A stretch of 64,000 bases of DNA from an uncultured Gemmatimonadales bacterium (GTDB taxonomy: Bacteria > Gemmatimonadota > Gemmatimonadetes > Gemmatimonadales > GWC2-71-9): the NCBI GenBank assembly GCA_963739455.1, contig CAVUAK010000001.1, positions 1,568,001 to 1,632,000 of the forward strand, written 5' to 3'. The notes under the pieces are model-generated. The model was not told the DNA's origin. It did no database searches and was given only the letters and a program-made list of their open reading frames with translations. The position numbers and the translations under genes are program-made. Positions 24,286 to 52,309 of this stretch are shown here, one piece after another; positions within the stretch are counted from its first letter, which is position 1; each line of letters begins with the position of its first letter.

Positions 24286-25404
24286 TCAGTGCCAGACGTC
24301 CCATTGCCGCCGCATGCCCAGCACCACGCCAATGCCCGCCGCCGAAACCATGTAGGCTCCCCACACAACCGCCTCTCGGAGCACCCTGAGCGGCGGAAGC
24401 AGCGCAATGGCCGCGATGATGAAGACCACCGCGAAGGCGACGACCAGAAAGTTGCCAGTGCCGACATGCTCCCAAGCGAGCGCCGATAGCCACAGTGCCG
24501 TGACCATGGCCAGCATCGGCGTGGCAAGTCGCATGAGCTTGTGAAAGACAAACTGGAACCAGATCGGATTCTTGTCCGGCCGCAATACTCCGGGAAGCCA
24601 CATGCAGAGCTGAACGTTGCCTGCGAGCGTCCTGACTTTTCGCTGATACTCGAGCTTTGGCGTGGTCTGACGCGTTTCGTGCACCACGGCATCCGGGCAG
24701 AACATGACGCGCTTGCCCTCGAGCACGAGGCGCATTGGAGTATACAAGTCGTCGAGGATGAGCCCGGCGGGCAGGGGTGCCCAGAGGGCACGCCGCATCG
24801 CGTAGAGCGACCCACTGACGCCGACAGCGGAATGCCACCGCGCTTCCGCGGCTCGTAATCCCACCTCCAGGTTCCAGTACCAACGGATCGGCGAGCTTCG
24901 CCGCTCAGCGCCAAGGGCGAGCGCCCCGGAGATAGCGCCGACGGTCTCGTCGAGTAACGGCAACACGAGCTCCCGGATCGTGTCGAGCGCAACACCCTGG
25001 CGCGTGTCGGTGAAGACGATCACGTCCCCGGTGGCCTGCCTCACTGCCGAATTCAGGGTGGCGGCCTTTCCGCCAGGGCCGTCTCCAAGCACGGTCACGA
25101 TGCGCGCGTCGGGCCCGTTACGCAGTACAGGGATCTGATGGTACGTCGACCAATCGAAAGCCACGACGACCTGCAGGCGATCCGCTGGATAGTCAGATGC
25201 CAAGACGGAGTCGATCTTCGAATCGATGAGCGAGACGTCGTCACGGGTTGCAATCAGGACGCTTACGGTTGGCGTGTATGGGCGAATGGGGATCGAGCTG
25301 CGGCGCGTGAGACGCGCCATGGAATGCGCAATAAGCGGATACCCCAGCCAAGTAACAATGAGCAGGGCAAATGCTGCGGAACCGAGGACAGCGAGCGTAT
25401 TCAT
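24286..25404 (-). CDS. Membrane glycosyltransferase family 2
   Basis: N-terminal TM (WLGYP), GKAATLN, FTDTR, GVSGSLYAMR, ILDDL, RKVRTLAGN, HKLMR. Confidence 0.88.
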   Translation of the reverse strand: MNTLAVLGSAAFALLIVTWLGYPLIAHSMARLTRRSSIPIRPYTPTVSVLIATRDDVSLIDSKIDSVLASDYPADRLQVVVAFDWSTYHQIPVLRNGPDARIVTVLGDGPGGKAATLNSAVRQATGDVIVFTDTRQGVALDTIRELVLPLLDETVGAISGALALGAERRSSPIRWYWNLEVGLRAAEARWHSAVGVSGSLYAMRRALWAPLPAGLILDDLYTPMRLVLEGKRVMFCPDAVVHETRQTTPKLEYQRKVRTLAGNVQLCMWLPGVLRPDKNPIWFQFVFHKLMRLATPMLAMVTALWLSALAWEHVGTGNFLVVAFAVVFIIAAIALLPPLRVLREAVVWGAYMVSAAGIGVVLGMRRQWDVWH

Positions 25405-30697: not shown

Positions 30698-31504
30698 ATG
30701 GAACGATTCGAGAAGGGTGAGCCGACCGGCGCCTCGCCGCGGGATTCATTCTCGGTCTTGGTCCTGGGTTTGCTGATCATCGGGCTCCTCGCCATGGTCG
30801 CCCTCAGGTCTGGTGACGCAATCCTTGTTCGCGCTTATCATGGCGACATGGGTCTCGCGAGCCGGATACTTGCGGGCAGGGCAGTTACACCAATCGAGCG
30901 CTATCTCGCGTACTGGGACCACATCGTTCGACAGAGCGCTATTATCGCGGGATTCTGCGTTCTTGCCGTTGCGTTGGCATCCAGCAGCGCCATGCAGCGG
31001 TTCCTTGAACGCAAGCTGGCCAGTGCGCCGAAGGAAATCGAGGTCACGAGCACAGCGCGCGCTCGCTTGCCATTCATCGTCGCCACGATTTTCCTCTTCC
31101 TTCAAGGGCTGGCCATTCTCACGGAGCAAGAGCTCTGGCCCTTCAGTCCCTACCGGATGTACGCGGAGATCCAAACTAGCCAGCTTGAATCGTTCCAGGC
31201 CTGGGCCGTCACGGACTCGGGTGAGAGACCGCTTTATGCTGACGACTTTCTCCCGCCGTTCAACAATGCACGCCTGTCGCAGGCTATCGAACTGCTGGGC
31301 GCCGAGGGTGATTCAAGTGATGTCAGGCGTGGTGCCCAAAATCTGCTGCAACTGTACGAGCACGCACGGGTGGCAGGGCTTCACGATGGACCGCCGATAG
31401 AGGGTATTCGAATGTACGCGGTTCGATGGACGATTGAACCCGAGCTGAGGAACGTCACGACTCCTGACGCCCGCCATCTGGTCGGCGAGTACAAGTCCCC
31501 GTGA
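30698..31504 (+). CDS. Hypothetical membrane protein, HTTM-partner-like (WPFSPYRMY motif)
   Basis: GGAGG RBS, three TM segments, then a soluble domain. The stop overlaps the next start (GTGA). Confidence 0.75.
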   Translation: MERFEKGEPTGASPRDSFSVLVLGLLIIGLLAMVALRSGDAILVRAYHGDMGLASRILAGRAVTPIERYLAYWDHIVRQSAIIAGFCVLAVALASSSAMQRFLERKLASAPKEIEVTSTARARLPFIVATIFLFLQGLAILTEQELWPFSPYRMYAEIQTSQLESFQAWAVTDSGERPLYADDFLPPFNNARLSQAIELLGAEGDSSDVRRGAQNLLQLYEHARVAGLHDGPPIEGIRMYAVRWTIEPELRNVTTPDARHLVGEYKSP

Positions 31505-32844
31505 ACGCTACAGCTCCCTGGAGTGCGGCCATTCAAGGTTCCAGGTGGATCCGCGCTCGGTTCGGCGAGTACCTCCTCGCGCCCATGTCAGTTGCCGAAA
31601 CCGGATGGTTTCGGATGGGGTTCTTCGCGATTGTTCTGAGCAGCTCCTTTATCGGCCAGCGGTACGTGACCCTGTGGAGCGAGGTCGACGAGGTATTCTG
31701 GCGACCGATGCTTCTGGGCCGCATGCTGCACATCCACCCTGGGTCAGCAGGGCTGCTCGCTATCCTGCTCGTCGTATGGAGGGTGGCACTGGGACTCGCG
31801 GCGATTGGTCTCTTCACCAGCTTCAGCACTCGCATTGCGGCACTCCTCGGCGTCTATCTCTTGGCACTTCCTCACACCTTCTCAAAGGTAGATCACGGCG
31901 ACACCATGGTTGCCCTGGGCCTCCTGCTCTTCGCCATCGTGCCGAGTGGCGGCGGATGGTCTTTCGATTCGCTGATCCGTCGTGCGAGACATCCGGAACC
32001 CATGCGCGCGGGCTCTGACACTGACAGGCTCACTGCGGGGGCCGGTTGGCACGTACAGCTGTTCAAGATGCTGCTCCCTTTGGCATTCTTCAGCGCCGGT
32101 ATCGCGAAGCTGCGTGTAAGCGGACTGTGGGCGTGGGCCAGTGCAGACAACCTCCGATATCAAGCGCTTCGTCACTTTTACACCCATAGGCCTCCGACCC
32201 AGATTGCCCAATGGATCGCTAGCTATCCCATCCTGACCCAGAGCCTGGCGATCAATACCCTAGTGATCGAGCTTGGCGCTCCGCTCTTGGTCGTGCTCCG
32301 CGGCTTTTGGCTGCTTGCGGCGCTTGGAGCCGTCGCGGGCATGCAGATCGGTTTCTGGCTCATCCTGGGCGTTTTCTTCTTCCACCTACTGCTGCTGATC
32401 CTCTTTTTCTTCCTTCCCTGGCGCTCCATCGCCGCCCTGCTGCGCGCCCGTTGGCCCGCGGTGCCGATGGATGTGCTGTTTGATGGGTCTTGCGGGATCT
32501 GCCAACAGACAATGTCGGTCCTTAGAGGTCTGGATGTTTTCGGTCGCCTCCGCAGACGCGACGTCCTTGCCGACTGGAGAGGGATCTCGGTTGATCATCC
32601 TGCTCTAAGTCAGGACCGCTGTCTCGACACAATGCACGTCATCGCCTCGGATGGCGTGTACACGGGATTTGAGGCGTATCGACGCATGGCCCGCGTCCTT
32701 CCGCTCATTTGGCTGGTCCTGCCGCTCCTATATCTTCCGCCTGTCCCTTGGTTTGGCCGGCGCATTTATGCGCGCGTTGCGCACTCGAGGCTCCTCAATG
32801 GTTGCCCCATCCCGGAGCGCTCCGGTGTCGGGCCAATTGCCTGA
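31501..32844 (+). CDS. HTTM-domain membrane protein fused to a DCC-family (DUF393) thiol-disulfide oxidoreductase
   Basis: WFRMG, GLFT, FFSAGIAKL...W, TLVIEL. C-terminal VLFDGSCGIC...GFEAY...IYARVA. Confidence 0.8.
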   Translation: MNATAPWSAAIQGSRWIRARFGEYLLAPMSVAETGWFRMGFFAIVLSSSFIGQRYVTLWSEVDEVFWRPMLLGRMLHIHPGSAGLLAILLVVWRVALGLAAIGLFTSFSTRIAALLGVYLLALPHTFSKVDHGDTMVALGLLLFAIVPSGGGWSFDSLIRRARHPEPMRAGSDTDRLTAGAGWHVQLFKMLLPLAFFSAGIAKLRVSGLWAWASADNLRYQALRHFYTHRPPTQIAQWIASYPILTQSLAINTLVIELGAPLLVVLRGFWLLAALGAVAGMQIGFWLILGVFFFHLLLLILFFFLPWRSIAALLRARWPAVPMDVLFDGSCGICQQTMSVLRGLDVFGRLRRRDVLADWRGISVDHPALSQDRCLDTMHVIASDGVYTGFEAYRRMARVLPLIWLVLPLLYLPPVPWFGRRIYARVAHSRLLNGCPIPERSGVGPIA

Positions 32845-32902
32845 GCAATCTAAGTCTCTGCCATTGAGCGTCACTAGTCTGGTGGTGCACTCCGGGCGAG
32901 CG

Positions 32903-34408
32903 ATGCAAATCGGCATCATGGCGCTGACGGGCTTGCTTGTGTCCGTCGGGTTCGCGTTGATGCTGCGCAACAACAGCACCCTCAGCATTTGGACAGATGA
33001 GGCGTACTCCCTCCACACAGCTACTCAGTCGCTCGGAAACGTTTGGAGCGAGAGTCTGGGCCTTCAGCGGCAGGGGCCCGTCTACTTTCTCTCCCTCGCC
33101 ACCTGGCTCAAGCTCGCTCCCGGTTTGTGGGGAGCTCGCCTGCTGTCGACCGTGTTTGTTGGGGGTGCGGTGCTCTTCGCTGGGCTCACGGCGCGTGACG
33201 TCATGCCAAGGGACCGTTGGTTGTACCCCCTGCTCGTCGCGCTGTGCCCATATACGCTCTGGGCCGGCTCCGAAGCCCGCGTGTACGCGATGAGCCTCTT
33301 CCTCGCGTCCCTGTCGACATACCTCCTTCTCAGGGCGCTCGCGCAGCCGCGCCCCCTCGTCTACTGGATCGGCTACGCACTCACGACCGCCTTTGGAGTC
33401 ATCGCGTTCTACCCGATGGCCCTGCTTCCCGTCGGTCAGGTGCTGGCGGCCTACGCAGTCGGTTCGCGGGAGGCGCGCCGCAGCCTGTGCATCGCCGCTG
33501 GAGGTACGATCCTGATGCTCCTGCCATGGGTGCCGATTGCCTGGTCGCAGGTGAGCCAAAGCTGGCTGCCAGAATGGAACAACCTCATCCAGCCGTTCGA
33601 TGCGCCACAGCAGCATGTCTCCATGATCGGGAGCATCGTGAATGCCGCGGGCTTCATGGCCGGCTCGGTGATGCGCTCACCGATCATCATCGATCGTGCA
33701 CCGGTGCGACTTTTTGCGATTCTCCTGGTCCTCGTCGCCGGCGGCATTGCAGTTGCCCGTGGCAAGACAGCGATGAACCCGGCTTGCCGCTTCTTCTTGC
33801 TCTGCTTCGGGATCATCGCGTCCGGCCTCATCCTGCTCATCGTGCTTCGGCCCGGCTTGATCCGGGATCGCTACGCGGTGATTCTCGTCGTGCCCACCAT
33901 GGCCGCCATCGCCAGTTGCGTCACTGCAATTCCGGCTGAACGCCTGCGCACCGTGCTGGTCGTGGCCTGGTGCGGGCTAATGGGCGTCTCGATGATCAGT
34001 TACCAGCGCAACAACCAAAGCGTGCAGGACTGGCGCGGAATCTCGACCTACATCGCCGCGAGGGGGCAGCCGCACGAGCCCATTCTCGTTCATTCCGCCG
34101 ACGGTGTGCTGCCTCTAAAGTTCGAGATGCACGGCTCTAACCCGGTGCGCGGCATCCCTGCCGAGCCCGATCTTGTGGTCTATGACCCCGGCGAGTTGCG
34201 TGTCTCCTCCGTCGCGCAGGTCGATTCCGCCTTGACTCCGCTTCTGTCGGGGCAGGGGACCATCTGGCTGGTCCTCAACCGATCGCTGACTCCCCGCTTC
34301 GGGACGGCGTATGTCGACCAGTTCAGGGTGGCGTCACTGCGGACGATCGATTCGGTAAGTGCGCCCGGGCTATCGGCGTATCACGTACAGTTACGGTCGC
34401 AGAACTAG
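32903..34408 (+). CDS. GT-C glycosyltransferase (GT39/PMT_2, ArnT-like)
   Basis: SIWTDEAYS, GPVYF, EARVYA, DRY, QDWRG. Multi-TM. The start is uncertain. Confidence 0.8.
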   Translation: MQIGIMALTGLLVSVGFALMLRNNSTLSIWTDEAYSLHTATQSLGNVWSESLGLQRQGPVYFLSLATWLKLAPGLWGARLLSTVFVGGAVLFAGLTARDVMPRDRWLYPLLVALCPYTLWAGSEARVYAMSLFLASLSTYLLLRALAQPRPLVYWIGYALTTAFGVIAFYPMALLPVGQVLAAYAVGSREARRSLCIAAGGTILMLLPWVPIAWSQVSQSWLPEWNNLIQPFDAPQQHVSMIGSIVNAAGFMAGSVMRSPIIIDRAPVRLFAILLVLVAGGIAVARGKTAMNPACRFFLLCFGIIASGLILLIVLRPGLIRDRYAVILVVPTMAAIASCVTAIPAERLRTVLVVAWCGLMGVSMISYQRNNQSVQDWRGISTYIAARGQPHEPILVHSADGVLPLKFEMHGSNPVRGIPAEPDLVVYDPGELRVSSVAQVDSALTPLLSGQGTIWLVLNRSLTPRFGTAYVDQFRVASLRTIDSVSAPGLSAYHVQLRSQN

Positions 34409-35463
34409 CGGGAACTCACAGGCGGTCCGGCGGTCGAATTGGCGTTCACCAGCCACGACAAGGCACCTGCAAGCGCCCAGTCGGTGTACTTTTCATTGCC
34501 CTCCCTTGTCACATGGTCGAAGTCATCGGCAAAATCGGCGTCCGTCAGCGGCGACGTAGTTGTCATGTCGACGACCGCTGCTCCATACGGTTCCGCGATC
34601 CTCCGGACTTCGTCGGCAAACGTCGAAAGGGTCGTGCTGAGGGCGAGCGGGCTGATCGTCCCTGGCTTCCTGGGATACAGGATGATCGTCACGTCGATGC
34701 CGCGTGCCTGGAATGACGTCAGGATGTTGCGGAGCGACTGCATCTGAGTCGAGTCACCGATGCACTGGGCGCCGCGCTCCATGGCGCGCTGCCAGCTCGC
34801 ATTACGCTGGTTGAGGTCGCTGGCGACTTCGTCCGCTGGCACAGGTCGGAAGCGCTGCCTGAGCAGGGGCAGGAGCATCTGCTGGCTCCGGTTGCGCACC
34901 AACACCGATACGCGCATCAGGCGCGACCAGTGATACTGCAGGAAGTTACGATTGTACGCGTTGAGTCCGTTTTGGCGCACGTCTTCCAGAAAATCGATAG
35001 TAGTCCAGGCGCGAGCAGGCAGGTTCGGCACATATCCGCCAGCGGTGCCGGGCGCGCAGGAATCCCACCACTCTGTCAGCAGGATCGCGTGACGCACGGC
35101 ACTCTTGTCGCCGAGTTCAGGCCAGACCCGGTGATTCAGCAACCACTCGTAGCTGCTGAGCTTGCCCCATTCCAGCGGTACCGCGACGATCCGCTGCTGG
35201 CCCGCAGTTCGCTTCGCCACCTCGGCCCCGACCTGGTCGAAGGTTCGCGCATGGCTCGAGCCGATGACGAGCACAGTCGGGTTGACCTGCCGCATGTCGC
35301 TGATCGCGTCGTCGACCTCGCGCCGCGGTCGTGGGTAGGCGCTAAGGCGCGCAAGGGCGATGTCGAGGCCAGCCACTGCCACGACAGCGAACAATGCGAC
35401 GATGGCGACGTTTCGCCATGTCTTGCTGACGGGAGCTGAACCCGATTCGAGCGGGGCGCTCAC
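34405..35463 (-). CDS. Membrane-anchored SGNH-like (DltD/AlgJ-like) putative acyltransferase
   Basis: Single N-terminal TM, VLVIGSS (block I Ser), C-terminal DDFDHV..EGN (DxxH). Confidence 0.7.
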   Translation of the reverse strand: MSAPLESGSAPVSKTWRNVAIVALFAVVAVAGLDIALARLSAYPRPRREVDDAISDMRQVNPTVLVIGSSHARTFDQVGAEVAKRTAGQQRIVAVPLEWGKLSSYEWLLNHRVWPELGDKSAVRHAILLTEWWDSCAPGTAGGYVPNLPARAWTTIDFLEDVRQNGLNAYNRNFLQYHWSRLMRVSVLVRNRSQQMLLPLLRQRFRPVPADEVASDLNQRNASWQRAMERGAQCIGDSTQMQSLRNILTSFQARGIDVTIILYPRKPGTISPLALSTTLSTFADEVRRIAEPYGAAVVDMTTTSPLTDADFADDFDHVTREGNEKYTDWALAGALSWLVNANSTAGPPVSSR

Positions 35464-37448
35464 TTGGACTCCGCGGCGCCGAGCTGTGTCGCGACGGACA
35501 GCGACGGATGCCGTGAAATAGCCGCGAGCGAAGCAGGGTTCCTGAGTGAGCTGAGGTTCGCGGGGACCTTCCCGTTCAGCACGTCCCGTGCAGCCCGCTC
35601 ACTCACCTTGCCGCTGAACGTTTGTGGAAGGTCCGTCACCTCAGCGATGACGGCCGGCACGTGATTCACCGACAGCGTCGTGGCGAGCATCTTCTTGAGT
35701 TGCAGTGTCAGCTTCCGGTCGAGGGACTTGCCAGTGGCCATCGTAAGCAAGAGAACGAGCCGGCTCCCTCCCGGTTCACGACTGTCTATCTGCTCGACGG
35801 CGAGGGCCTCGGACACCTCCGGCACTCGCTGCAGGGCATTGTAGATCTCCGCCGGACCGATCCGGACTCCACGGATGTTGAGGACGCCGTCTGTGCGGCC
35901 GAGCACTCGCGCGGTATTCCGGGGAGTGAGGGTGATCAGGTCCCCGTGCGTCCAGACACACGGATGCTGGTCGAAGTAAGAGGCGCGCATCCGCTCCCCA
36001 CCGGGATCATTGAGAAAGCCGACCGGACGTGAGGGGAAGGGCGTGCAGCAAACGAGCTCGCCGGTGCCGACCACCATTGGACCGTCGTCAACCCAGGCGC
36101 GCACGTCGAGGCCAAGGCTGAGGCACTGACTTTCGCCGGCAAACACCGGCAACTCCGGGTTGCCCAGCACAAAGCAGCCAATGATGTCGGTTCCGCCGGA
36201 GATCGATTGCACAAGGCACCCGCCGAACGCGGCGGTGGCCCACTCATGGAGGTCGTCGCGCAAGACAGAGCCGGTGGAGAGAACGGACCGGACCCCTGAC
36301 ACGTCGCCACGTGTTCGGGGCTCGATGGACGCCTCCCGGAGCATCTGCAGGTAGGTCGGATTTGTCCCGAAGACGGTGACGCCCCGGGCAAGGGCTGTGA
36401 CCAGCAGGCTGTCAGGCTCAGGATACGTGACCGAGCCATCATAGACCACGATCTCCGCGCCCGTACCGAGACCGGAGAGCAGCCAATTCCACATCATCCA
36501 GCCGCACGTGGTCTGGTACAGCATCACGTCGCCGTACCCAAGGTCGCCGTGCAGACGGTGCTCCTTGAGGTGCTCGAGCAGGGTCCCACCCACACCGTGC
36601 ACGATGGCCTTGGGGCGCCCAGTCGTCCCGGAGCTGTAGAGCACGAAGAGTGGATGGTCGAACGGGACCCTCGGCCACTCGTGCTCGCCGTCGCCAGGCT
36701 TCGCAGCTGCACTCAGGCTCTGGATGGTGTGAGTCGGGCAACCCCCCGTTGCGGCGGCGCCATCCAGTGCAATGATCCCAGCAATGCTCGGAATATCCCG
36801 CGAGAGTCGACTGAGTACATCCGTCACGTTGCGGACGACACCGTGATGCTGGAACTGTCCATGCGCCACCAGCAGCCTGGGCTCGAACTGCCCAAAGCGC
36901 TCCCGGATCGCGTCATAGCCGAGATCTGGCGAGAGCGCGCTCCACACAGCACCGCGACCGGTCACCGCGAGGCAAGCCACCGCCGTGTCGATAGTGTTCC
37001 GCACGATAGCGGCAACATGGTCCCCAGGACCGATACCGAGCTGTTCAAGTCCCCCAGCCAGTGCAGAAACACGCGCGCGGAGCTCACCCCTCGAGATCGA
37101 GCTGGTCGCGCCCGCCTCGTTCACCTCTCGGATGGCGGGCCAGCTGTCATCACCGGGAAGCTGGCGCAGCAGGTTCTCAGTGTAGTTGAGGCGAAGCTCC
37201 GGAAAAAACCGGGCACTCGCGATCTCGTCTCCGGTGCAAACCGGGTAGATCGAGCCAATGGCGATCAACCCGCTCCAGTCCAGGAATGCCTCCCAGAACG
37301 CGCGAAAGTGCTGTATGGAGAAGGCGTGAAGGTTATGCCACTCACCGAGATCGACCCCCACCTTTGCCTGCAGGAAGTCGCGGAACTCGCCGAGGTCGGT
37401 GGCCGACTGCGCAGGTGGTTGCCATAATGGTGCCAGGGTGCTGGTCAT
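35460..37448 (-). CDS. Acetoacetate--CoA ligase family acyl-adenylate-forming enzyme
   Basis: LNYTENLL, FDHPLFVLYSSGTTGRPKAIVHGVGG, TTCGWMMWNW, SISGGTDIIGCF, WTHGD, GVRIGPAEIY, SGKVSE, LRNP. Confidence 0.9.
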   Translation of the reverse strand: MTSTLAPLWQPPAQSATDLGEFRDFLQAKVGVDLGEWHNLHAFSIQHFRAFWEAFLDWSGLIAIGSIYPVCTGDEIASARFFPELRLNYTENLLRQLPGDDSWPAIREVNEAGATSSISRGELRARVSALAGGLEQLGIGPGDHVAAIVRNTIDTAVACLAVTGRGAVWSALSPDLGYDAIRERFGQFEPRLLVAHGQFQHHGVVRNVTDVLSRLSRDIPSIAGIIALDGAAATGGCPTHTIQSLSAAAKPGDGEHEWPRVPFDHPLFVLYSSGTTGRPKAIVHGVGGTLLEHLKEHRLHGDLGYGDVMLYQTTCGWMMWNWLLSGLGTGAEIVVYDGSVTYPEPDSLLVTALARGVTVFGTNPTYLQMLREASIEPRTRGDVSGVRSVLSTGSVLRDDLHEWATAAFGGCLVQSISGGTDIIGCFVLGNPELPVFAGESQCLSLGLDVRAWVDDGPMVVGTGELVCCTPFPSRPVGFLNDPGGERMRASYFDQHPCVWTHGDLITLTPRNTARVLGRTDGVLNIRGVRIGPAEIYNALQRVPEVSEALAVEQIDSREPGGSRLVLLLTMATGKSLDRKLTLQLKKMLATTLSVNHVPAVIAEVTDLPQTFSGKVSERAARDVLNGKVPANLSSLRNPASLAAISRHPSLSVATQLGAAESK

Positions 37449-37708
37449 GGCGCGGGCTGGAGGCGCCGAACCTGGCCAACGATCTTCCCCAAGCTGTCGA
37501 AGTTCTCGCGCGTCAGGCTCTTTCGATCGACGGTGATGCCGTAGCGCTGCTCCAGATACACCACGAGCCGAACGAATCCAAGGCTGTCGAGAATGCCATT
37601 CTCGATGAACGAGCGCTCGTCATCGCCGATCAATGTCTCGGCGTCGCCGAAATGCACGTTGTCATCGAGCCAGTCGATGACGTCGCGGCGGATATCAGAA
37701 CTGGGCAT
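37445..37708 (-). CDS. Acyl carrier protein (87 aa)
   Basis: GILDSLGFVRLVVYLEQRYGI...ENFDSL. Confidence 0.9.
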   Translation of the reverse strand: MPSSDIRRDVIDWLDDNVHFGDAETLIGDDERSFIENGILDSLGFVRLVVYLEQRYGITVDRKSLTRENFDSLGKIVGQVRRLQPAP

Positions 37709-39149
37709 AGATGAACGCCCCGTCGCCGATCGGCGCGAAGAGCAGCAGGAAGGCGATGAGCGCACCATACGCAAGCCCGCGTACCGGTGCGGGCAGCCGG
37801 AACAGCCGGTCACGGATGCGCGTACCGAGTGAGGATGACTGCCCGTGGTAGGCTGCCACGATCACAACGGCCAGCAGCAGGGTCTTGCTCGTCAGTACCA
37901 GCGAGTCGTTGCCACCCTGTAGGAGGCCTGGCCAGAAGCGCGCGATGTCACCCAGCGTCGCGGCGCGGAACGGCAACATGCTGGCGACGAAGAAAAACTG
38001 CGTGACGGCCCAGGCAAACATCAGGTACGGGGTACTGCGGCGCAGCGTGACCCAGCGCCGGTCGGCGCGCGACCTCCGCTTGAAAGCCTCATCCCACCAG
38101 GCATGCACGGCGAGCCCGATCCCCTGAACGAGCCCCCACAGGACGAAGGGCCAGGTGGCCCCGTGCCAGAGACCGGAGAAAAGGAACACGGCGGTGAACG
38201 CGGCCGGAATACTCTTCTTGAACCAGCCCTTCCCTGTCGTCATGGGAACGAAGAGGTACTCGAAGAGCCAGGTGCTTAGGCTGATGTGCCAGTTGCGCCA
38301 GAAGGCGAGCAGGTTCGTGGTGGCGAAGGGGAATGCAAAGTTCCGGGGCAGTTCCAGCCCCAGCAACTTGCCGGCACCAATGGCGATGGCGCTGTACCCG
38401 CCGAAGTCGCACAGTACTTGTCCGGCATAACAAGCCAGGGCAACCCAGTGAGAGATCGTGTTGAAGCGCTCGGGGTCGGCGAACACCGGATTGACCGACT
38501 GGGCGAAGATCGGGGCGAGGTAGAGTTTCGCAAAGAGCCCGAAAAGTATGTGTGTGGCACCAGATGCCCATTGTTCCGCCCGGGGGCTCCGAGGAGCGGC
38601 CAACTGTGGTAGCATGGCGCGCGCGCTGCTGATCGGACCAGCAAGGAGTTGGGGAAAGAACGATACAAAGAGGGCATAGTCGAGCAGTGACTCCGACGGA
38701 AACACCCGCTCATGGTAGACGTCGATCAGGTAGCCCAGCTTGCTCAACGTGTAGAAGGAGAGCCCGATCGGAATCGCGAGGTGCAGCAGCGGAAGCGCCG
38801 ATGGAAACCCGGCGCTCGTCAGCAGGGAGTTGAGGGACGATGCCAGGAAGGGCTCGTACTTGAGCAGTGCCAGCACGCCGACATTGACGGCGATTCCCGA
38901 CAGGAACGCTGCTTGTCGTAGACGAGGCCTGCCGGAAGAACCGCCAGCTACCATCAGCCTGGCGACGGCGAAGTCACATAGCGTGAGCGCGACAAGGAGC
39001 GGGAGGAGCCTCAGGCTCCACGAAGCGAAGAAGAGGTAACTCGCCAGCAGCAGGAGCGCATTCTGCAGCATCCGCTGGCGCGGCATGAGCCAATACAGTG
39101 CCCAGACCACCGGAAAGAAGAACGCGAACTCAATGGCGGCGAGACTCAC
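37695..39149 (-). CDS. MBOAT family O-acyltransferase (AlgI/DltB-like)
   Basis: PIGLSFYT, FFPQLLAGPI, DFGGYS, FWRNWHISLSTW, SGLWHG, C-terminal FIYAQF. Confidence 0.92.
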   Translation of the reverse strand: MSLAAIEFAFFFPVVWALYWLMPRQRMLQNALLLLASYLFFASWSLRLLPLLVALTLCDFAVARLMVAGGSSGRPRLRQAAFLSGIAVNVGVLALLKYEPFLASSLNSLLTSAGFPSALPLLHLAIPIGLSFYTLSKLGYLIDVYHERVFPSESLLDYALFVSFFPQLLAGPISSARAMLPQLAAPRSPRAEQWASGATHILFGLFAKLYLAPIFAQSVNPVFADPERFNTISHWVALACYAGQVLCDFGGYSAIAIGAGKLLGLELPRNFAFPFATTNLLAFWRNWHISLSTWLFEYLFVPMTTGKGWFKKSIPAAFTAVFLFSGLWHGATWPFVLWGLVQGIGLAVHAWWDEAFKRRSRADRRWVTLRRSTPYLMFAWAVTQFFFVASMLPFRAATLGDIARFWPGLLQGGNDSLVLTSKTLLLAVVIVAAYHGQSSSLGTRIRDRLFRLPAPVRGLAYGALIAFLLLFAPIGDGAFIYAQF

Positions 39150-39161
39150 GTCAGTCGACCC

Positions 39162-40685
39162 CTATGCAACGGACCCACCACGCATCGCGGCGAGGAAGGC
39201 GGCGCCCCGGTGCCTGAGTACAGGAAACATGGCAAGAGAATAGGCCACGGCGCCTGCAAGAATCTCGAGGGCTAATCGCGGTATTGCCGGAAAGTCGGCT
39301 GCGAGCAGCGTCCGCACCGCATATACGGCTGCTACCATGACCACGGACCCCGTGATCGCCGGGAGAAGCGAGGCGACGTACTTCACGAACGAGAGGTCGA
39401 TTTCATGGAGGACCGCCACGAGGAGTGGCCCGCTCACCACTGGATAGAAAATCAGCCAGGCAACAGCGACACCCGGGAGGCCGTACCGCGCCCCCACGGC
39501 GAAACTGCCAATCAGGAGCGCGCTTGCAAGAAGGCTGTTCTTGAGCACTGCACGGGTCTTGTTGCGGGCGATGAGTATCGACGGTAGCAGCACGAGGACC
39601 GAGCGCATCACAGCGAGCACGCACAGGATCTGCATCGGCACGACAGCTGGGCCCCACTTCGCTCCCAGGACGCCGACCAGGAGATGGTCCGCGATCATCG
39701 CCAGTCCCAGGGAGGCCGGGAATGTCACGAGACTCAAACCTTGGGTGACCAGCAACAGGTATCGGCGCATGCGCGCCGAATCATGCTTTGTTGCTGAGAA
39801 ATAGGATGGCAAGACCCGGGTGACGAGGCCTGAGATCTTGTCCAGTGGCGCTGCGGAGAACGACAGTGCAAGCGTATACGCGCCCAAGGATGCGGCACCC
39901 AGGAGCCGTCCAACGATCAATTGGTCCGCGTTGGAATACGCGAAGTAGCCCAGCCTGCTCAGTAGCACGTCCCGCCCAAACCCCAGGGCATGCCCAAGGC
40001 CCTGCCCGGTTGGTCGCCGGAACCCGATGGGTACCGCTCTGCTCAGCATGATGGTAGAGAGGAATTGAGCCATGACGCCGCCGAGCACAAGCGACCAGTA
40101 GCGAAACCCCATGAATGCAAGGGCAACCGTAATGAGGGCCTGCGTTGCCGCCTGGGCAGCCTCGATGATCGAGAGGCGCTTGAAGCCGAGGTCCCGCTGG
40201 AGCACCCCGGAGCGAACAGTCTGAAGCGACGCAAAACAGGCCGTGAGCCCGAGAACAGCAAGCACCGGGAACAGTTCGGGGTACCGGAAGAACAGGCTGA
40301 GTGGCCAGGCAAGTGCAAGAGTAAGCGCGTAGGCGCCCGCGCCAAGCAAGGCTGCCAGGCCGTTGAGCTCCTCCAATTGTGTCGTGGTCATCTGTCGAAG
40401 GTTGACCACCGCACTCCCTAACCCGAACTCGCTCAGCATCGTCATGAGCGACAGATAGACCGTCGCCATGCCGAAAATGCCGTAGTCGGCGGGGGCGAGG
40501 AGCCGAGCCGTCGCGAGCGTCGCCACCCACGAAAGCACTTGCGCGCTCCACTTCGCCGCGGCCGTCCAGGCGACCCCATGGGCAAATGAGCGATCGAGCT
40601 GACGAGCTGGTGCACCAAGAGCGTCTGTAGGAAAGGATTCTCTCAGCGCACTCTGGTGGCTGTCGCTCGCGGTCGGAATACTCAT
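39162..40685 (-). CDS. Wzx-type polysaccharide flippase
   Basis: ARLLAPADYG, EFGLGSA, NADQLIVGRLLGAASLGAY, LGAKW. Confidence 0.88.
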   Translation of the reverse strand: MSIPTASDSHQSALRESFPTDALGAPARQLDRSFAHGVAWTAAAKWSAQVLSWVATLATARLLAPADYGIFGMATVYLSLMTMLSEFGLGSAVVNLRQMTTTQLEELNGLAALLGAGAYALTLALAWPLSLFFRYPELFPVLAVLGLTACFASLQTVRSGVLQRDLGFKRLSIIEAAQAATQALITVALAFMGFRYWSLVLGGVMAQFLSTIMLSRAVPIGFRRPTGQGLGHALGFGRDVLLSRLGYFAYSNADQLIVGRLLGAASLGAYTLALSFSAAPLDKISGLVTRVLPSYFSATKHDSARMRRYLLLVTQGLSLVTFPASLGLAMIADHLLVGVLGAKWGPAVVPMQILCVLAVMRSVLVLLPSILIARNKTRAVLKNSLLASALLIGSFAVGARYGLPGVAVAWLIFYPVVSGPLLVAVLHEIDLSFVKYVASLLPAITGSVVMVAAVYAVRTLLAADFPAIPRLALEILAGAVAYSLAMFPVLRHRGAAFLAAMRGGSVA

Positions 40686-40690: not shown

Positions 40691-42436
40691 TTAGGCGAAC
40701 GCCGTGACGGGCTCGCCAACCGCACCTAGCGCGCGCCGGACCAGTTGGGACGCGAAGCCCGACTCAGGTGGCGGCAGCGCCGCGCCTTCACTCACGATCG
40801 CGCAGCCGGTCGGGCAGGTCCCCGCGATCCGCTGCACCTCGCTGAACTGGACCCGGTTGAATGACGTCGGCGCGTAGCGCACGTTCAGGAAGCGCACCAG
40901 CTCCGCCACCTCGTTGCCGACACCGGTTTCGACCGCCCGGAACCCCGCATATACCGCCTCTACCAGCGCCGCCGACGGCGCCTGTCGCCCCCGGCCAATG
41001 CCGACATACGCGAGGCCGCTCGCCTCCACGTCCGCCGCCCGCATCAGGTTGCACGCATCCACCACCTGCTTCGCCTTCGGCGCCATCGCAGCAATCGCCT
41101 TCCACTGCTCCGCGTACACACGGTGCGGACAGCAGAGCACGATCACCTCCGCGTCGCCCACCGCCTCGGCTAGGTCACGCGTGAACACATCCGTCATGCC
41201 GAAGATGCTTCAGGTTCGCGTCCGTCGCATACACATACGGGTCATGGATCTGCACCTGTACGCCGTGTGCCCGGAGCACCTTCGCGAAGTACAGCGTCGG
41301 CGAGTTCCGCGTGTCCTCGGAGTTGCCCCGGTAGGCCGCGCCCAGCAGCGCAACACGCTTCCCCTTGAGGCTACCGAACGCGCGCTCCGCCAGCCGCAGC
41401 GTCTCTGCCGGCGACTGGTCGTTGATCCGGCGCGACTCCAGGATCAGCGACCGCGAGTTGTCCTCCCCCGCCTCGAGCGCCCGCCACCAGAGCAGCACGC
41501 CGTCCTTCGGCAGGCAGTGCCCGCCCACGCCCAGCATCGGCACCAGCAGCCCGCCGCTCGGCACCGCCTGCGGGTCGCTCGACGCCGTGTCCTCCTGCTT
41601 CGCCTTCGTGTTCACGGCATCGCGCAGGGCGAAGAAATCGATGTCCTGCGCGTCGCAGTAGCGCACGACCTCGGCCGCATACGCGATGCGCACGTCGCGG
41701 TAGGCGTTCTCCAGCGTCTTCACCACCTCGGCCGTCATGCTGTTCGTCGCGTGCAGCTCGCCCTGGGTCACGATCTTCGAGTAGAGCCGCCGGATCAGCC
41801 CCGGCGTCTCCGGGTGCAGGCCCGCGATGATCTTGTCCGACGCCGCCACACGCTCCACCAGGCGGCCCGGCATCACCCGGTTGGGGCTGTTGCCCAGCAG
41901 GATGTCCTTCCCCTCGATCAGGCCGTGCTTGGCGAAGTGATCCGTGATCACCGTCGCCATGGACGACGGCGCCAGCGTCGACTCGAACACGATCACCGGC
42001 ACGTTGCCCTGCGGGCCGCTTCTGCAGCGCCAGCGCGATGCCCGTCAGCGCCTCGAACATCGGGCCGTAGTCGGGCACAGCCCCCTTCTTGTCGGTCTGC
42101 ACGGAGATCAGGATCATGTCGGCGTCGCGACAGCGCATCGTAGCCGTGCGCCGCGCTCAGCAGCCCCGCCGCGACCGATTCCTTCACCACCCGGTCGAGG
42201 TCGGGCTCGACGCCGCCGATCGGCGACTTGCCCGCGTTGATCGCGTCCACCTTCCAGCCCGAGGTCGGCGAGTTGCGCTGCACCACGACCACCTTGGCCG
42301 GCTCCGTCGAGCCTTCCCGGATGCGGGCGTGAGCCAGCATCGCCGCCATCGGCATGCCGACGATGCCAGGGCCCACGACGGCGATCTTGCGGACGGTCCA
42401 GGCGGTGACCTTGTCGTTCTCTAGCGTGAGCGGCAT
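40691..42436 (-). CDS. Nucleotide-sugar dehydrogenase (UDP-Glc/GDP-Man/UDP-ManNAc DH family; frameshifted)
   Basis: VVGPGIVG, FEST, SPNRVMPG, KTLENAYRDV, GVGGHCLPKD, GAAYRGNSEDTRNSP, HDPY. Indels at ~42130, ~42005 and ~41200. Confidence 0.87.
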
Positions 42437-42455
42437 CGGTCTCGTCGGGTCAGGG

Positions 42456-44338
42456 TCAGTCGGCGTCGATGAACTGCCGGTGCCACAGCTCCAGGTTCAG
42501 GAGCCCCCACAGGCGACGGCCGAAGGCCGCCTCCTTGCCTAGCAACTGCTGTACCTCGGCCGGGTCGAAGATTCCCCGCTCCCGGCAGCGCTGCGACAGC
42601 AGCACGTCGTGGAAGAAGTCCCGCGCCCGGCCCTGGGCCCACAGGTGCAGCGGCACCGGGAAGCCCATCTTGTCCTTGCGCTCCAGGATCCGCGTCGGCA
42701 GCGTGTGCTGCACCGCGCGCTTGAGGATGTACTTCATCTCGCCGCCGCGGAACTTCATCGCCGGCGGCATGCTCGCCACCAGGTCCGCCATCCGGTAGTC
42801 GAGCATCGGCACCCGCGACTCGAGCGACACCGCCATGCTCACGCGGTCCTCCACCTGCAGCAGCGCCGGGAGGGTGGTCACCATGTCGAAGTGCGTCATC
42901 TTGTTGTAGTACGACGACGTCTCCGGGTGGTTGAACACCTCCTGGAACCGCTCGAACTGCGCCTCGGGCTGGTAGCCTGCCCGGAAGTCCTCGCTCAGCA
43001 GGTCCAGCGCGCCACCGCTCCGGTCGATCAGCCGGAAGTAGCGCCGGTCCATCGGCGAGAACAGCTCATCGTTCCAGAACTGCTTCAGCATCGGCACGTA
43101 CTGCTTGAGCGCCGCCAGGTTGGGCACGATCGAGCGGAGCGAGACGATGTGCTCCTGCTCTTCGTTCGTCTCGAAGATCGCGCCCTTGAGCGCCTGCTCG
43201 AGGTACGCCACCAGGTAGCGCGCGTAGCCGCCGAAGATCTCATCGCCGCCCTGGCCGCCCAGGCACACCTTCACCTGCTTCTGCGCCATCCGCGAGACGA
43301 TGTACTGCGGAAACAGGCCCGGCCCCGCCACCGGCTCGTCCATGTGGTAGACGAGCTTCGGCAGCAGGTCGACGAACTCCTGCTCGGTCGGGAAGATCTC
43401 GTGCGACTCGGCGCCGCAGGCGCGGCCACCTCGCGCGCATAGTCGAGCTCGTCGAACTCCGGCCCTTCCTCGAACGCGCCCGAGAAGGTGTGCAGCTTGC
43501 CGCCGACATGCGGGGCGGCCAGCATCGTCACCAGGCTCGAGTCCATGCCGCCGCTCAGGTAGCAGCCCACCGGCACGTCGCTGCGCATCTGCAGCCGCAC
43601 CGCGTCGGTGAGCAGCCGCCGGACCTCCTCCACGAAGTACTCCTCCGTGTGGTACGGGTCGAGCTGGAACGTCGGTTCCCAGTACTTCTCCGTTCGCACC
43701 TCGAGCGATGCCAGGTTCACCACCTGGTAGTGCCCCGGCAGCAGCTTGCGTACGCCCCGGAACAGCGTCGCATCGCCCAGCACGAACTGGAAGGTCAGGT
43801 AGTCGTGCAGCGCCTCGGTGTGCGGGGCTCGCATCGCCTCCGGATGCCGCAGCAGCGCCTTGATCTCCGAGGCGTAGCATACCTGCCCCGCGATCTCGGC
43901 GTAGTACAGCGGCTTGACCCCGAAGTGATCGCGCGCCGCCAGCACCGTGCCCCGTTCCCGGTCGTACAGCAGGAACGCGAACATGCCGTTGAGCAGCTCG
44001 ACGCAGCCCTCGCCATGCTCGGCGTAGAGCCGCAGGATCACTTCGGTGTCCGACTGCGTCCTGAACTCGTGGCCCTGTCGACGCAGCTCGTCGCGCAGTT
44101 CCACGTAGTTGTAGATCTCGCCGTTGAACACGATCGTCAGCGGCCCGCTCGTCATCGGCTGCTGGCCGGTGGCGAGGTCGATGATCGCCAGCCGCTTGTG
44201 GTGGAAGCCCACCCGGTCGTCGATCTGCTGGCCCTCGCCGTCCGGTCCGCGATGCTGGATCGTGTGCGCCATCGCGCCCAGGATCTCCGCGTCCACCGGC
44301 TGCGCCGGGCGCGTCAGGATCCCCACGAATCCGCACAT
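42456..44338 (-). CDS. asnB: Asparagine synthase (glutamine-hydrolysing) family amidotransferase (one frameshift ~43420)
   Basis: MCGFVG, HRGPD, RLAIIDL, FNGEIYNY, SDTEV, RDHFGVKPL, LSGGMDSS, GQGGDEIFGGY, EDRVSMA, KMGFPVP. Confidence 0.9.
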
Positions 44339-44341
44339 GCG

Positions 44342-45314
44342 CTAGGCCGCCACGGCCGGCGCGCGGAGCGCCAGGCCCTTCCGGTCCATCAGGGCGCGCG
44401 CATGGGTGCTCATGTTCACCAGTTCGAAGTGCTCACCGAGCACCTTCAGCACCCGCTCGAAGAGCTCGATCTTCTTGCTGCTCTTCACGTCCATGCCCGG
44501 GAAGAAGGCGAGGGCCGGAGCCTCTTCGCCGCCGAGCAGGTCGAGCGGGTGAAGCAGGAACGAAGGCTCGAGTCCGGTGGCGCGGCACATGGTCACCGCC
44601 GTGCGGAGGTACGCCGCCATCGCCACTTCCGAGTAGCGCGCCAGGTAGAGCAGGTAGCTGAAGTGGAATGGCACCTTGAACACCGGCATCGTGGTCACCG
44701 GGATCTCGAGCAGCGTCTTGCCGCCATCCAGGTTCCAGTGATACGGCTTGTTCGGGCGGAACCCCTCGCTCAGTGAACCGAAGAGGTAGCTGCGCTTCTC
44801 CCGCTCTTCCTTCGACAGCTTCGCGGTCCAGAAGTAGTAGGCGCGCGCCAGCGGTCCGAGGAAGGTGGGGAAGGTCGAGGCGTCGTACAGATACCCTCGA
44901 CGCGAGAGCACGCGCAGCAGTTCCGGGCTCCAGCTGAAGCCCGGTCCGCGGAACCCGAGGGGTCGCTGCCCAGTCGCCGCCTGGATCGCCGAGCTCGGCG
45001 CCGGTGATTTCCTTCTCGAGCTGGTCCGGCGCGTACAGGTGCAGCCACGGCTCGTGCTCGTAGGAGTGGTTGCCCACCTCGTGCCCCGCCGTCACGAACG
45101 CGCGCAGCGCCGGGATGTTCTCCTCCCGCGCCGCATCAACGCCCACGATGAAGAACGTGATCTTGATGCCAAGGCGCTCGAGCGACTCGAGCACGATGGG
45201 CGAGAACGTCGGGAGGTACGTCGGGCGGCTTTCCCAGCCGGCGTCCCCGTGCGTCTTCATGTACGACCAGAGGTTGTCGACGTCGAGCGAGACGCTTGCT
45301 AGCGGACGGCTCAT
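44342..45314 (-). CDS. Polysaccharide deacetylase (CE4) family protein (frameshifted)
   Basis: SLDVDN, TFFIVG, HEVGNHSYEH, YLYDAS, EIPVTT, LLHPLD. Confidence 0.85.
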
Positions 45315-46665
45315 GCAGCCCCCGTGGCGGCCAGTACGGCGGCTCGCTTGCGCGCAGGCGCGTGAGAAGCTGGGCCGCCTGGCTGTTGGCGAGGCCGATG
45401 GTCTCGTTCACGTTGAGCGTCCCGTTCGCGATCTGCGCCGAGTTGACGATGGAGACCGCCGGCAGGGACGTCGCAAGGGCCGGAAGTCGCTCCGCCGTGT
45501 AGTTGAGCGTTGATACTGCGAGCACTTCCCTCACACGCGACACCTGGAACGCGAGCACCTGGTCGCGCTTGAACGCGGGATACATCCGCTCCAGCGCCGC
45601 GAGGAACAGTTCACGGATTTCGTCGTCGGTCTTGCTCCAGAAGGTGTCGTCCTGTGCCAGGTACCGCGGCAGGTACACCAGGCTCCGGCCGCCGAACCGT
45701 TCCTTGTCCACCAGCGTCGTCATTTCGATCACGCCAGTGAATGGAACCCAGTCGTCAGTGAGGTTGGTGACGTAGTAGTCCGCCAGGGGTCGCTCCAGCA
45801 GCAGCGACGCGCAGGCGATTCCCTGATATACCACGCCATTCAGTCGCTCGCTCTCGGCGGCGCTCAGCTGGGGCGCCAGCTTGGCCACCCGCCCGCACGG
45901 TACCGTGAGCACTACATGATCGAAGGTACGACTTGTCCCGTTGGCGAACTGTACCTCGGCGCCGTGATCCAGTTGCTTCACTTCGGCCACCGGGTGGTCT
46001 GTCAGGGTCTCGACGCCCAGCGCATCGAGGTGCTTCTGGAAGCGGTCCAGCACCAGCGTATATCCGCCGTCCACATAGCCGAACCGTTCCACCTTGAGGC
46101 CGGACCGGCGGGCGGCATACATCCGCTGGATGATTGCCCAGATGAACGACGCACTCGCGAGGCGGTAGTTCTCTCCCAGCTTCGACCGCAGCAGCGGCAA
46201 CCACATCTTCTGGAACACCCGCTTCCCCGAGAGCTTCTCGAGCCACGTCGCCACCGGAACCTCTTCGAGCGCGCGCCAGTCGGTCACGCGTGAAGCGTAG
46301 AGGATGGTGCCAGCCAGTCGCGCCTTGTCGATGAGGGACAGCGGGGGGAACATGGCGAAGTCGAGGCTCGTGGAAAGCGAATAGAGCTTGCCGTCAGTAT
46401 AGAAACCGGTGCGCGTGGTGCCCCATCGCAGCCGGTCGGCGAGCTCGAGATCCTCGAGTAACGCGCGAAGGTTCAGGTCGGAGAGGAGGATGACGTGGTA
46501 GAACCGGTCCCAGGTGTACTCCCCGTGACGCGCGGCGCTCGCCAGCCCACCGGTGGTCGGTGCCGCCTCGATGAGCGTGGCATTGCAGCCAGCCTCCTTG
46601 AGCCGCTTGGCCAGGGTCATGCCGAGCATGCCGCCACCAACGATGCCGATGCTAGGAGTGGACAC
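45311..46665 (-). CDS. NAD(P)/FAD-dependent oxidoreductase (amine oxidase/PPO-like)
   Basis: IGIVGGGMLG, GGLA, WDRFYHVIL, GYVDGGY, NSAQIANGTLNVNET. Ends inferred from the overlapping stop/start with neighbours. Confidence 0.82.
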
Positions 46666-51023: not shown

Positions 51024-51650
51024 ATGACCTTCAAGCTCAAGCGCCTCATTCCCACCTCGCTGCGTCGCTGGCGCGAGGTGCTGGCGACCCTCAAGCCTGA
51101 GGAGCGCCGCGTGCTCATTCGAACCGCCATTGCCGCCACGCTCCGTCCGCGTCGCCGGGACTGGCGGGAGCTCGTGCGGAACGGCAGCAATTTCGTAATG
51201 GTTTGCCACGGCAACATCATCCGGAGTCCGCTCGCCGCGGCGGCACTTGCCCGCGAGGCCGCTTCGCGCCAACGAACTGCAACCCTGTCGAGCGCCGGCC
51301 TCTTCGCCCGGCCCGGCGAACCCGCGGATCCCCGCGCCCTCGAATCAGGCAGGGCGCGCGGGCTTCCCATCGAGGCCCATCGGTCTCGCCTGCTCGGCAC
51401 ACCCCAGGTGTGGTCGGCGGACGCCATCTTCGTCATGGACCACTACAACCTCGGTCGAATCATCTCGCGCTTTCCGGAGGCAGCCGAACGGGTCTTCCTC
51501 CTGGGCGGCTGCCAGCCCGATGGGCGCATGACACTTACCGAGATCTACGACCCCGTCTCTGGTTCGCTCGCCGACGTTGAGCTTGCGCACGATCAGGCCA
51601 TCGCCGCCGTGCGCATTCTTGCCGAGGCATGGGACACCTCGCCAGCGTGA
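51024..51650 (+). CDS. Low-molecular-weight protein-tyrosine phosphatase (Wzb-like)
   Basis: VCHGNIIRS P-loop, SAGL, HRSR, FVMD, IYDP. Confidence 0.87.
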   Translation: MTFKLKRLIPTSLRRWREVLATLKPEERRVLIRTAIAATLRPRRRDWRELVRNGSNFVMVCHGNIIRSPLAAAALAREAASRQRTATLSSAGLFARPGEPADPRALESGRARGLPIEAHRSRLLGTPQVWSADAIFVMDHYNLGRIISRFPEAAERVFLLGGCQPDGRMTLTEIYDPVSGSLADVELAHDQAIAAVRILAEAWDTSPA

Positions 51651-52309
51651 CGGGGAGCGGGCTGGAATCGCTCTTTCCCGCGGGCGTCGTGGTCGAGGTT
51701 GCGACCGCCGCCGATGAGGACGAGCGTCTCCTGTTTGAAGCCGAACTCGCCCTGATGGGCAGCATGATTCCAGCCCGCCGTCGTGAGTTCGCCTCGGGTC
51801 GGAACACCGCCCGCCGCGCCCTCGCCCAACTTGGCATTCCCCCCTCGCCCCTGCTTCGCCAAGGCACGGGCCGCGACATCGCCTGGCCCGCCGGTCTCAT
51901 CGGGAGCATCAGCCACACCCGCGGCCTCTGCGCCGTCGCCTGCGCCCGCATCTCAAGCCAGCTGCAGTCGCTCGGCCTCGACGTCGAACAGCCCGGCCTG
52001 CTGGGCGACGATATCGTGCCCACAGTCTGCCGCTCCGATGAGCTCCAGATGCTCGCCGCCTTTCCGCAGCCCTGGCCATCCGACTGGCCCCGCCTGCTCT
52101 TTGTCATGAAGGAGGCGGCGTACAAGGCGTGGTATCCCGTCACCCGTCGGGAAATCTCGTTTCAGGAAATGCGCGTCACCATCGATGTCGCGGAGCGGAG
52201 TTGTGTGGCCGAAGTGGATGGAAATGTCGCAGCCGGCCTGAAGATCAACGGCCGATTCGGGTGGGAAGAACATCTTGTCTATGCGGGAGCGGTACTGACG
52301 CGGCACTGA
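51647..52309 (+). CDS. 4'-phosphopantetheinyl transferase (EntD/Npt-like)
   Basis: RRREFASGR, WPAGLIGSISHT, LGLDVE, FVMKEAAYKAWYP. GTG overlaps the upstream stop. Confidence 0.92.
   Translation: MTGSGLESLFPAGVVVEVATAADEDERLLFEAELALMGSMIPARRREFASGRNTARRALAQLGIPPSPLLRQGTGRDIAWPAGLIGSISHTRGLCAVACARISSQLQSLGLDVEQPGLLGDDIVPTVCRSDELQMLAAFPQPWPSDWPRLLFVMKEAAYKAWYPVTRREISFQEMRVTIDVAERSCVAEVDGNVAAGLKINGRFGWEEHLVYAGAVLTRH

Follow-up and report, generated by a model that had tools for sequence, protein, structure and literature searches.

A putative carrier-fed MBOAT-SGNH acylation cassette with an acetoacetate-CoA ligase-family enzyme in a Gemmatimonadales glycan locus

Four genes on the minus strand of contig CAVUAK010000001.1, from an uncultured Gemmatimonadales bacterium, encode an MBOAT acyltransferase, an acyl carrier protein (ACP), an adenylating ligase of the acetoacetyl-CoA synthetase (AACS) family and a membrane-anchored SGNH protein (Table 1). 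They lie in a stretch of 64,000 nucleotides that was analysed as a whole and is called the window here; the genomes and loci compared with it carry G and L numbers. The overlapping order MBOAT-ACP-ligase-SGNH behind a flippase, read from the sequence in an initial annotation, was found again, and the reading frames of all four genes are intact, though apparent frameshifts affect much of the surrounding contig. The MBOAT gene starts 12 nt past the flippase stop, the MBOAT and ACP genes overlap by 14 nt, and the ACP/ligase and ligase/SGNH genes overlap by 4 nt each (ATGA and GTGA), suggesting from these overlaps that the cassette genes are translationally coupled. A promoter and terminator scan did no better than chance (1 vs 1.1 and 5 vs 4.6).

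Table 1 Genes of the cassette and two context genes in the window
Feature	Position	Strand	Length	Family or basis
MBOAT acyltransferase	37695..39149	minus	484 aa	PF03062
ACP, dedicated acidic carrier protein	37445..37708	minus	87 aa, from ATG at 37708	PF00550
AACS-family adenylating ligase	35460..37448	minus	662 aa	TIGR01217, NF002937
SGNH protein, membrane-anchored, predicted terminal acyltransferase	34405..35463	minus	352 aa	Fold searches
Wzx-type polysaccharide flippase	39162..40685	minus		PF13440, 204 bits; context gene upstream of MBOAT
4'-Phosphopantetheinyl transferase (PPTase)	51629..52309	plus		PF17837 and PF01648, both above cut-off

The cassette recurs across genomes

The linkage initially proposed from this single locus was borne out elsewhere, in several groups of bacteria. 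Fourteen other loci have the whole set side by side, all in the order SGNH-MBOAT-ACP-ligase (14/14); the order of the window was seen in none. Because related genomes are not independent, the counts given here overstate the number of events. Homologs of the SGNH protein fall into 73 clusters, itself counted; a plasmid collection gave no match to the SGNH protein. At seven metagenome loci from the SGNH-anchored search, the MBOAT gene is next in 7/7, the ACP gene is present in 6/7 and the ligase gene in 4/7; two of the three loci without the ligase stop at contig edges, and the third, L082, has no ligase beside its ACP. In the window's own phylum, Gemmatimonadota, the cassette occurs in 2 of 300 other genomes as three copies, each with four genes and one of them rearranged.

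The ACP profile matched 15/301 genomes from the phylum of G302 and 2/301 from the class of G301, and none of 201 genomes from the order of G303. At 16 new ACP-anchored loci the ligase follows directly in 14, the MBOAT gene directly precedes in 11, and all four genes are present in 8. In the phylum of G302, the SGNH protein was found in 16/301 genomes, including all 15 with the ACP. The top 14 ligase-profile scores in this sample (831-1063 bits) belong to 14 of the 15 ACP genomes, the fifteenth having a split ligase beside its ACP, while 67 further AACS-bearing genomes score at most 763 and are without the ACP. Where ACP and ligase stand alone, the SGNH-MBOAT pair lies elsewhere in the same genome (5/5), and where SGNH, MBOAT and ACP stand alone, a ligase of the cassette clade described below lies elsewhere in the same genome (2/2). 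At control AACS loci (flanks of up to 7 kb, from a ligase scan over 3/64 parts that was dominated by ordinary AACS), MBOAT or SGNH was found at 0/80 and ACP at 1/80.

In G215, a genome of the same genus, the cassette sits at nearly the same position as in the window. The upstream DNA of the two is 84% identical over 7.7 kb, whereas similarity between the cassettes is confined to patches of 66-72% identity. Third-position GC drops from 0.90-0.92 in two upstream genes to 0.77-0.79 in the cassette. This patchy identity and lower GC suggest that the cassette has been swapped horizontally inside a variable glycan region.

The membrane pair and the carrier

The MBOAT protein matches PF03062 (81.7 bits, cut-off 27) and aligns with DltB (6bug_C, E 2e-25) such that His329 and His288 correspond to DltB His336 and His289 (for these residues of DltB, see PMC11035591). 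It is not a DltB equivalog, as its score against TIGR04091 (146.4) is below the cut-off of 375. Its C-terminal end is the shuttle hexapeptide FIYAQF, containing Tyr481. The pattern FxYxxF is C-terminal in 24/24 rows compared, one of which is an AlgI-like paralog of L092, where the cassette copy ends in FIYAQF. There is no separate DltX: the motif sits on the MBOAT protein itself, the genes overlap, and the gap upstream is only those 12 nt.

The SGNH protein scored just 23 bits against PF13472 (cut-off 32.9), did not match PF04914 at E 0.01, and its profile matched none of the PDB sequences. Its assignment to the SGNH group, already made in the initial annotation, is secured by its predicted fold. 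A structure model built from 60 relatives (predicted local distance difference test, pLDDT, 92.3) had SGNH/GDSL proteins as all of its best matches (Z 13.6, root-mean-square deviation, rmsd, 3.4 over 185 residues). DltD gave the longest alignments (237-243 residues, Z 11.4-11.7, rmsd 5.0-5.2) and ranked below generic GDSL proteins. The protein carries the motifs G68-S69-S70-H71 and D314-x-D316-H317, in which S69, S70, H71, D314, D316 and H317 are invariant in 60/60 relatives; the predicted triad is Ser69 (or Ser70), Asp314 and His317. One membrane helix, at residues 19-37, lies at the N-terminus.

The ACP matches PF00550 (24 bits, cut-off 20.8), has a net charge of -5 and scores too low for a DltC equivalog (40.3, cut-off 68); among solved structures it is closest to stand-alone peptidyl carriers and DltC. 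The predicted phosphopantetheine site, Ser42, is invariant in 11/11 sequences, with a mean column identity of 64%. The PPTase encoded in the window is a candidate activator of this carrier, and a PPTase gene adjoins the ligase in L136 and a fused ligase in L002. As the PPTase gene of the window adjoins genes for a non-ribosomal peptide synthetase/polyketide synthase (NRPS/PKS), it may serve the latter only.

The cassette ligases form a separate clade

Acetoacetate-CoA ligases are ordinarily catabolic enzymes. The cassette ligase has no DltA model among its best 25 NCBIfam matches and passes AACS cut-offs instead, and its nearest solved structure is AacS of S. lividans (PDB 4WD1, 4wd1_A, E 4.8e-130). 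The initial view of this ligase as something other than a housekeeping AACS agrees with its phylogeny. In the tree the cassette ligases fall into a single clade (FastTree support 1.0, stem 0.62-0.65), in which 29/29 sequences group together and which takes in none of the 78 ordinary, stand-alone AACS; L019, which has no single segment above the score filter, was omitted from the tree and four duplicate loci were dropped. G294 carries one of each type, the ordinary AACS scoring 871 bits and the cassette copy 612. Six clade members are fusions of ligase, carrier and thioesterase, namely L002, P0135, P0159 and three plasmid-encoded proteins from cultured Burkholderiaceae.

As a side observation, the fusions (L002, L197, L198, L199, P0135 and P0159) are single-module proteins annotated as plain acetoacetate-CoA ligase, and the hosts of the plasmid-borne ones are cultured Caballeronia/Burkholderia and Cupriavidus. 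Such fusions include WP_078201666.1 of Cupriavidus necator NH9 and WP_244817717.1 of Caballeronia.

Residues were compared between the 78 ordinary AACS and 21 context-confirmed cassette ligases. The adenylation motifs are invariant in both groups, Lys614 is intact in the window ligase, and the acid pocket (W317-M318-M319-W320-N321, T392, G418 and G419) is kept in 78/78 ordinary and 20-21/21 cassette sequences. G418 in particular is present in 78/78 and 21/21, and the position is Trp in 3/3 acetyl-CoA synthetases (Acs), for which a tryptophan wall of the acid pocket has been described (PMC11584562). In contrast, several residues of the ordinary enzymes are lost from the cassette ligases: F176 (78/78 vs 0/21), D183 (77/78 vs 0/21), K/R204 (77/78 vs 1/21), R589 (71/78 vs 4/21) and R595 (76/78 vs 0/21). 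Position 532 is Thr in 78/78 ordinary and Pro in 21/21 cassette ligases, and position 526 is Gly in 77/78 and R/K in 19/21, the A8 loop changing from NPGG..T to N(I/V)RG..P. Near the pocket, S424G is fixed in 21/21 cassette ligases. We take the segment around F176 to line the CoA adenine site, and the IRG element to resemble the A8 motif of NRPS. R589 aligns with Acs position 584, of which PDB 2P20 presumably represents the R584A variant. Residue 584 of Acs contacts the 3'-phosphate of CoA (PMC10455477). The changes at CoA-facing positions point away from CoA as the acceptor, if not decisively. The separate clade, these changed positions and the carrier-fused clade members together make up sequence evidence that favours loading of the carrier rather than CoA.

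We put forward no electrostatic argument, as the net charge of the C-subdomain is nearly alike in the two groups (2.3 vs 1.0).

A proposed acylation relay and its alternatives

We consider it fairly probable that the four proteins form a relay, from the ligase through the ACP and Tyr481 of the MBOAT protein to the SGNH protein and a surface glycan, with acetoacetate or 3-hydroxybutyrate as the acid. The ligase would adenylate acetoacetate (or 3-hydroxybutyrate) and put the acyl group on the phosphopantetheine arm of ACP Ser42, not on CoA. By analogy with characterised systems, the MBOAT protein would then move the acyl group onto Tyr481 of its own C-terminal tail, and the catalytic serine of the SGNH protein would take it up and pass it, as an ester, to a glycan of the cell surface, beyond the inner membrane. 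In the Dlt and PatAB systems, where the chemistry is established, a His-dependent step puts the acyl group on the tyrosine of FxYxxF, and the SGNH serine receives it next; PatA acylates the tyrosine and PatB then accepts the acyl group (PMC12148441). Carrier loading, the identity of the acid and the acceptor are all inferred. From general metabolism, a private carrier would be expected to shield an acetoacetyl unit from thiolase. Several observations weigh against parts of this relay and are considered with the alternatives that they bear on.

By analogy, a glycan is the best guess for the acceptor. The cassette of the window has flippases, glycosyltransferases, a nucleotide-sugar dehydrogenase, amidotransferases and an exosortase as neighbours, and all four copies seen in its own phylum (the window, L092, L093 and L094) lie among glycan genes. 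A flippase is near the cassette in L126 and L094 as well and is not conserved beside most copies. However, among 23 other annotated loci, clear glycan genes were found at 9, a single glycosyltransferase at 3 related ones and no recognised glycan gene at 11, in an annotation where open reading frames (ORFs) were picked by a heuristic, so that genes were missed, and four short loci were left out. The interpretation put forward initially is supported overall, with a refinement as to the acceptor: since many copies are away from glycan genes, the group is not necessarily transferred to the polysaccharide that the adjacent operon makes.

The same relay might instead serve an acceptor other than a polysaccharide, which we regard as improbable; candidates would be peptidoglycan, a glycan attached to protein, and a lipid or glycolipid, possibly one made by an NRPS/PKS. 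MBOATs have been proposed to acylate a hexose of a cyanobacterial peptide (PMC13122637). Besides the 11 loci just mentioned, such an acceptor is favoured by the NRPS/PKS hybrids that adjoin the cassette in L126 and L135 and lie 14 kb off in the window, by the SGNH-MBOAT pair that follows a CDP-alcohol phosphatidyltransferase gene in three related genomes, and by the exosortase and PEP-CTERM-like genes in the window region. The own-phylum copies among glycan genes speak against it, and acylation genes such as dlt may lie apart from the genes of their acceptor. Moreover, characterised MBOAT-SGNH pairs target envelope polymers (PMC12148441).

As for the acid, the ligase shares the pocket columns of ordinary AACS, which suggests acetoacetate or another C4 acid like it. 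3-Hydroxy-3-methylglutaryl-CoA (HMG-CoA) lyase frees acetoacetate, and in L001 its gene (373.7, cut-off 246) immediately precedes ACP-ligase; L001 is the only one of the cassette loci searched with this gene beside the cassette. In the genome of the window a single HMG-CoA lyase gene lies together with a 3-oxoacid CoA-transferase gene, 48 kb off in the same glycan region, and free acetoacetate is plausibly available to the cassette with no dedicated link. A 3-hydroxybutyrate dehydrogenase above cut-off was found in 0/5 genomes, and no reductase was seen to recur with the cassette among the annotated neighbours. The group placed on the glycan could be acetoacetyl, or 3-hydroxybutyryl formed by reduction on the carrier or by direct activation. 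The available portion of a review of glycan structures (PMC9912281) lists 3-hydroxybutyryl amides as substituents and does not list acetoacetyl, the strings 'acetoacet' and '3-oxo' having no occurrence in it.

It is slightly more improbable again that the relay works as proposed but on a different short polar acid, such as lactate, 3-hydroxypropionate or a C4-C5 acid with a branched chain. The long stem of the ligase clade (0.62) and the S424G change near the pocket, fixed in 21/21, would be consistent with a shift in substrate, and in this ligase family specificity is poorly predicted from sequence, so that the substrate cannot be safely read from it (PMC11584562). The first-shell pocket columns are nevertheless those of ordinary AACS, and the HMG-CoA lyase gene directly upstream in L001 also argues for acetoacetate.

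The least probable of the three alternatives is that the ligase is a CoA ligase giving local acetoacetyl-CoA, with the ACP loaded by transacylation or the MBOAT protein using the CoA ester as PatA does. The ligase scores above the cut-offs of the ordinary AACS models TIGR01217 (606 bits, cut-off 520.9) and NF002937 (661, cut-off 639). A second, ordinary AACS was found in 0/15 cassette genomes against 67/286 others (Fisher p 0.028, with related genomes counted as independent and 4 candidates scored per genome). In G000, the genome of the window (84% complete), the cassette ligase is the sole AACS, and in G215 all AACS copies are of the cassette type. As these cassette genomes are without a second AACS, the ligase may still serve CoA. 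The ligase is also unlinked from the ACP in G546 and G366, and L082 has none next to its ACP. The argument based on Acs R584 is weak, because three Acs from the same phylum are likewise without Arg at 589/584 and because loss of R584 raises the Km of Acs just 7-8 fold (PMC10455477). On the other side, ACP-ligase adjacency is kept even where the MBOAT-SGNH pair has been relocated, six clade members carry a fused carrier domain, residues invariant in ordinary AACS are lost across the clade, and no transacylase recurs among the annotated neighbours. Loading of the ACP by the ligase is therefore the reading that we prefer. A chance assembly of unrelated genes is rejected on the strength of the AACS control loci together with the co-occurrence counts for ACP, SGNH and ligase.

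Other features of the region and of related loci

A second carrier-MBOAT cassette lies at 18-3009 (plus strand) of the window and encodes an FkbH-domain protein (TIGR01686 294, cut-off 147), a small ACP-like ORF product and an MBOAT protein ending in FLYWQF. It is likely a glyceryl relay, with FkbH taken by us to be the glyceryl donor. A third MBOAT gene, apparently frameshifted, lies outside the window in the same glycan region (G000:C1:1640689-1643255). At 30698-34408 (plus strand), converging on the cassette, are genes for a membrane protein, a membrane protein with a DCC1-like thiol-disulfide domain and a PMT_2-like (GT-C) protein; PMT_2-like genes adjoin the cassette in L083 and L094 too. 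Upstream of the glycan operon, 48689-50757 (minus strand) holds an exosortase gene, its EpsI-type partner and a short PEP-CTERM-like gene. The segment 51629-64000, beside the glycan locus, holds the PPTase gene and an NRPS/PKS hybrid that is frameshifted and includes a MupA/Atu3671-type luciferase-like domain. Many genes at 18645-24300 and 40691-48453 look frameshift-broken, probably through sequencing errors, as their orthologs in G215 are uninterrupted.

The HMG-CoA lyase and CoA-transferase genes of the window's genome (G000:C1:1652321-1656642) lie among glycan genes beside an AT3 acyltransferase gene, as they do in L184, L185 and L187, that is, in 4/4 genus members examined. That this pair supplies acetoacetate specifically to the cassette is not supported, since G202 and G240, in which no cassette was found, have it in the same context. 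The pair may provide acetoacetyl groups for glycan acylation in a CoA-dependent way, or be a set of relocated catabolic genes. The SGNH-MBOAT pair of three related genomes comes after a CDP-alcohol phosphatidyltransferase gene near Flp pilus genes (L192, L193 and L194), and ACP-ligase lies elsewhere, before genes for START-like and metallo-beta-lactamase-fold proteins (L128, L131 and L133).

Relation to known systems and significance

The kinship with Dlt and AlgI-type systems suggested in the initial annotation holds for parts of both types and can be refined. The Dlt pathway (DltA, DltC, DltB, DltX and DltD) carries out D-alanylation of lipoteichoic acid, and the cassette resembles it in its adenylating ligase, dedicated carrier, MBOAT with catalytic His, FxYxxF tyrosine shuttle and anchored SGNH protein (PMC12148441, PMC11035591). 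It differs in that its ligase is derived from AACS and not from DltA, DltX is absent, the hosts are diderm, the carrier, MBOAT and SGNH proteins score below or lie outside the Dlt family models, and the acid, judged by the AACS-like pocket, is predicted to be a C4 oxo or hydroxy acid rather than D-alanine. D-alanyl Dlt-like operons also occur in some Gram-negative bacteria. With PatA/PatB and AlgI/AlgJ the cassette shares the C-terminal hexapeptide fused to the MBOAT protein (FIYAQF, compared with FIYANF in N. gonorrhoeae PatA) and a separate SGNH protein with one anchor (PMC12148441). According to the same 2025 paper (PMC12148441), MBOAT/SGNH pathways other than Dlt use no carrier protein and have acyl-CoA as donor, whereas here, by gene content, a carrier and a ligase accompany the MBOAT-SGNH pair in 15/15 genomes, and the ACP is present in 15/16 SGNH-positive genomes.

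The cassette ligase is like AACS (TIGR01217) in passing the family cut-off, in its acid pocket and in having 4WD1 as nearest structure. It differs in forming a clade of its own, in its altered CoA-facing and A8 positions, and in its constant association with one carrier family across the tested genomes, as a neighbour or by co-occurrence, or its fusion to a carrier and a thioesterase. The FkbH-ACP-MBOAT cassette of the window likewise lies in a glycan locus and has an MBOAT that is fed by a carrier and ends in its own FxYxxF tail, but its loader is an FkbH protein and not a ligase; no characterisation of such a cassette acting on a polymer was found in the portions of the literature available. 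Having neither DltA nor DltX, and having a carrier, the cassette is a member of neither the Dlt nor the PatAB group. As the MBOAT protein carries the DltX-type shuttle motif as a fused tail, in the manner of PatA and AlgI, the cassette is best read as a hybrid, in which a Dlt-style carrier feeds a PatAB-style membrane pair. A literature search found no description of the four-gene cassette; supplements, where such clusters could be listed, lay outside this search.

In summary, the cassette is a recurring counter-example to the carrier-free rule for MBOAT/SGNH pathways other than Dlt, and a carrier-fed route therefore looks general for exporting acyl groups other than acetyl. A glycan substituent that is unreported or unexplained is predicted, either acetoacetyl or a route to O-3-hydroxybutyryl. 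More tentatively, and with considerable doubt, bacteria may put acetoacetyl (3-oxobutyryl) esters on a surface polymer through a clade of carrier-loading enzymes misannotated as acetoacetate-CoA ligases, the same clade supplying the one-module ligase-carrier-thioesterase proteins of cultured Burkholderiaceae. If this is true, the polymer would bear a ketone-containing substituent that could in principle chelate metals or react with amines. The finding also flags a clade of enzymes that are labelled acetoacetyl-CoA synthetase in databases and hence read as part of ketone-body catabolism.

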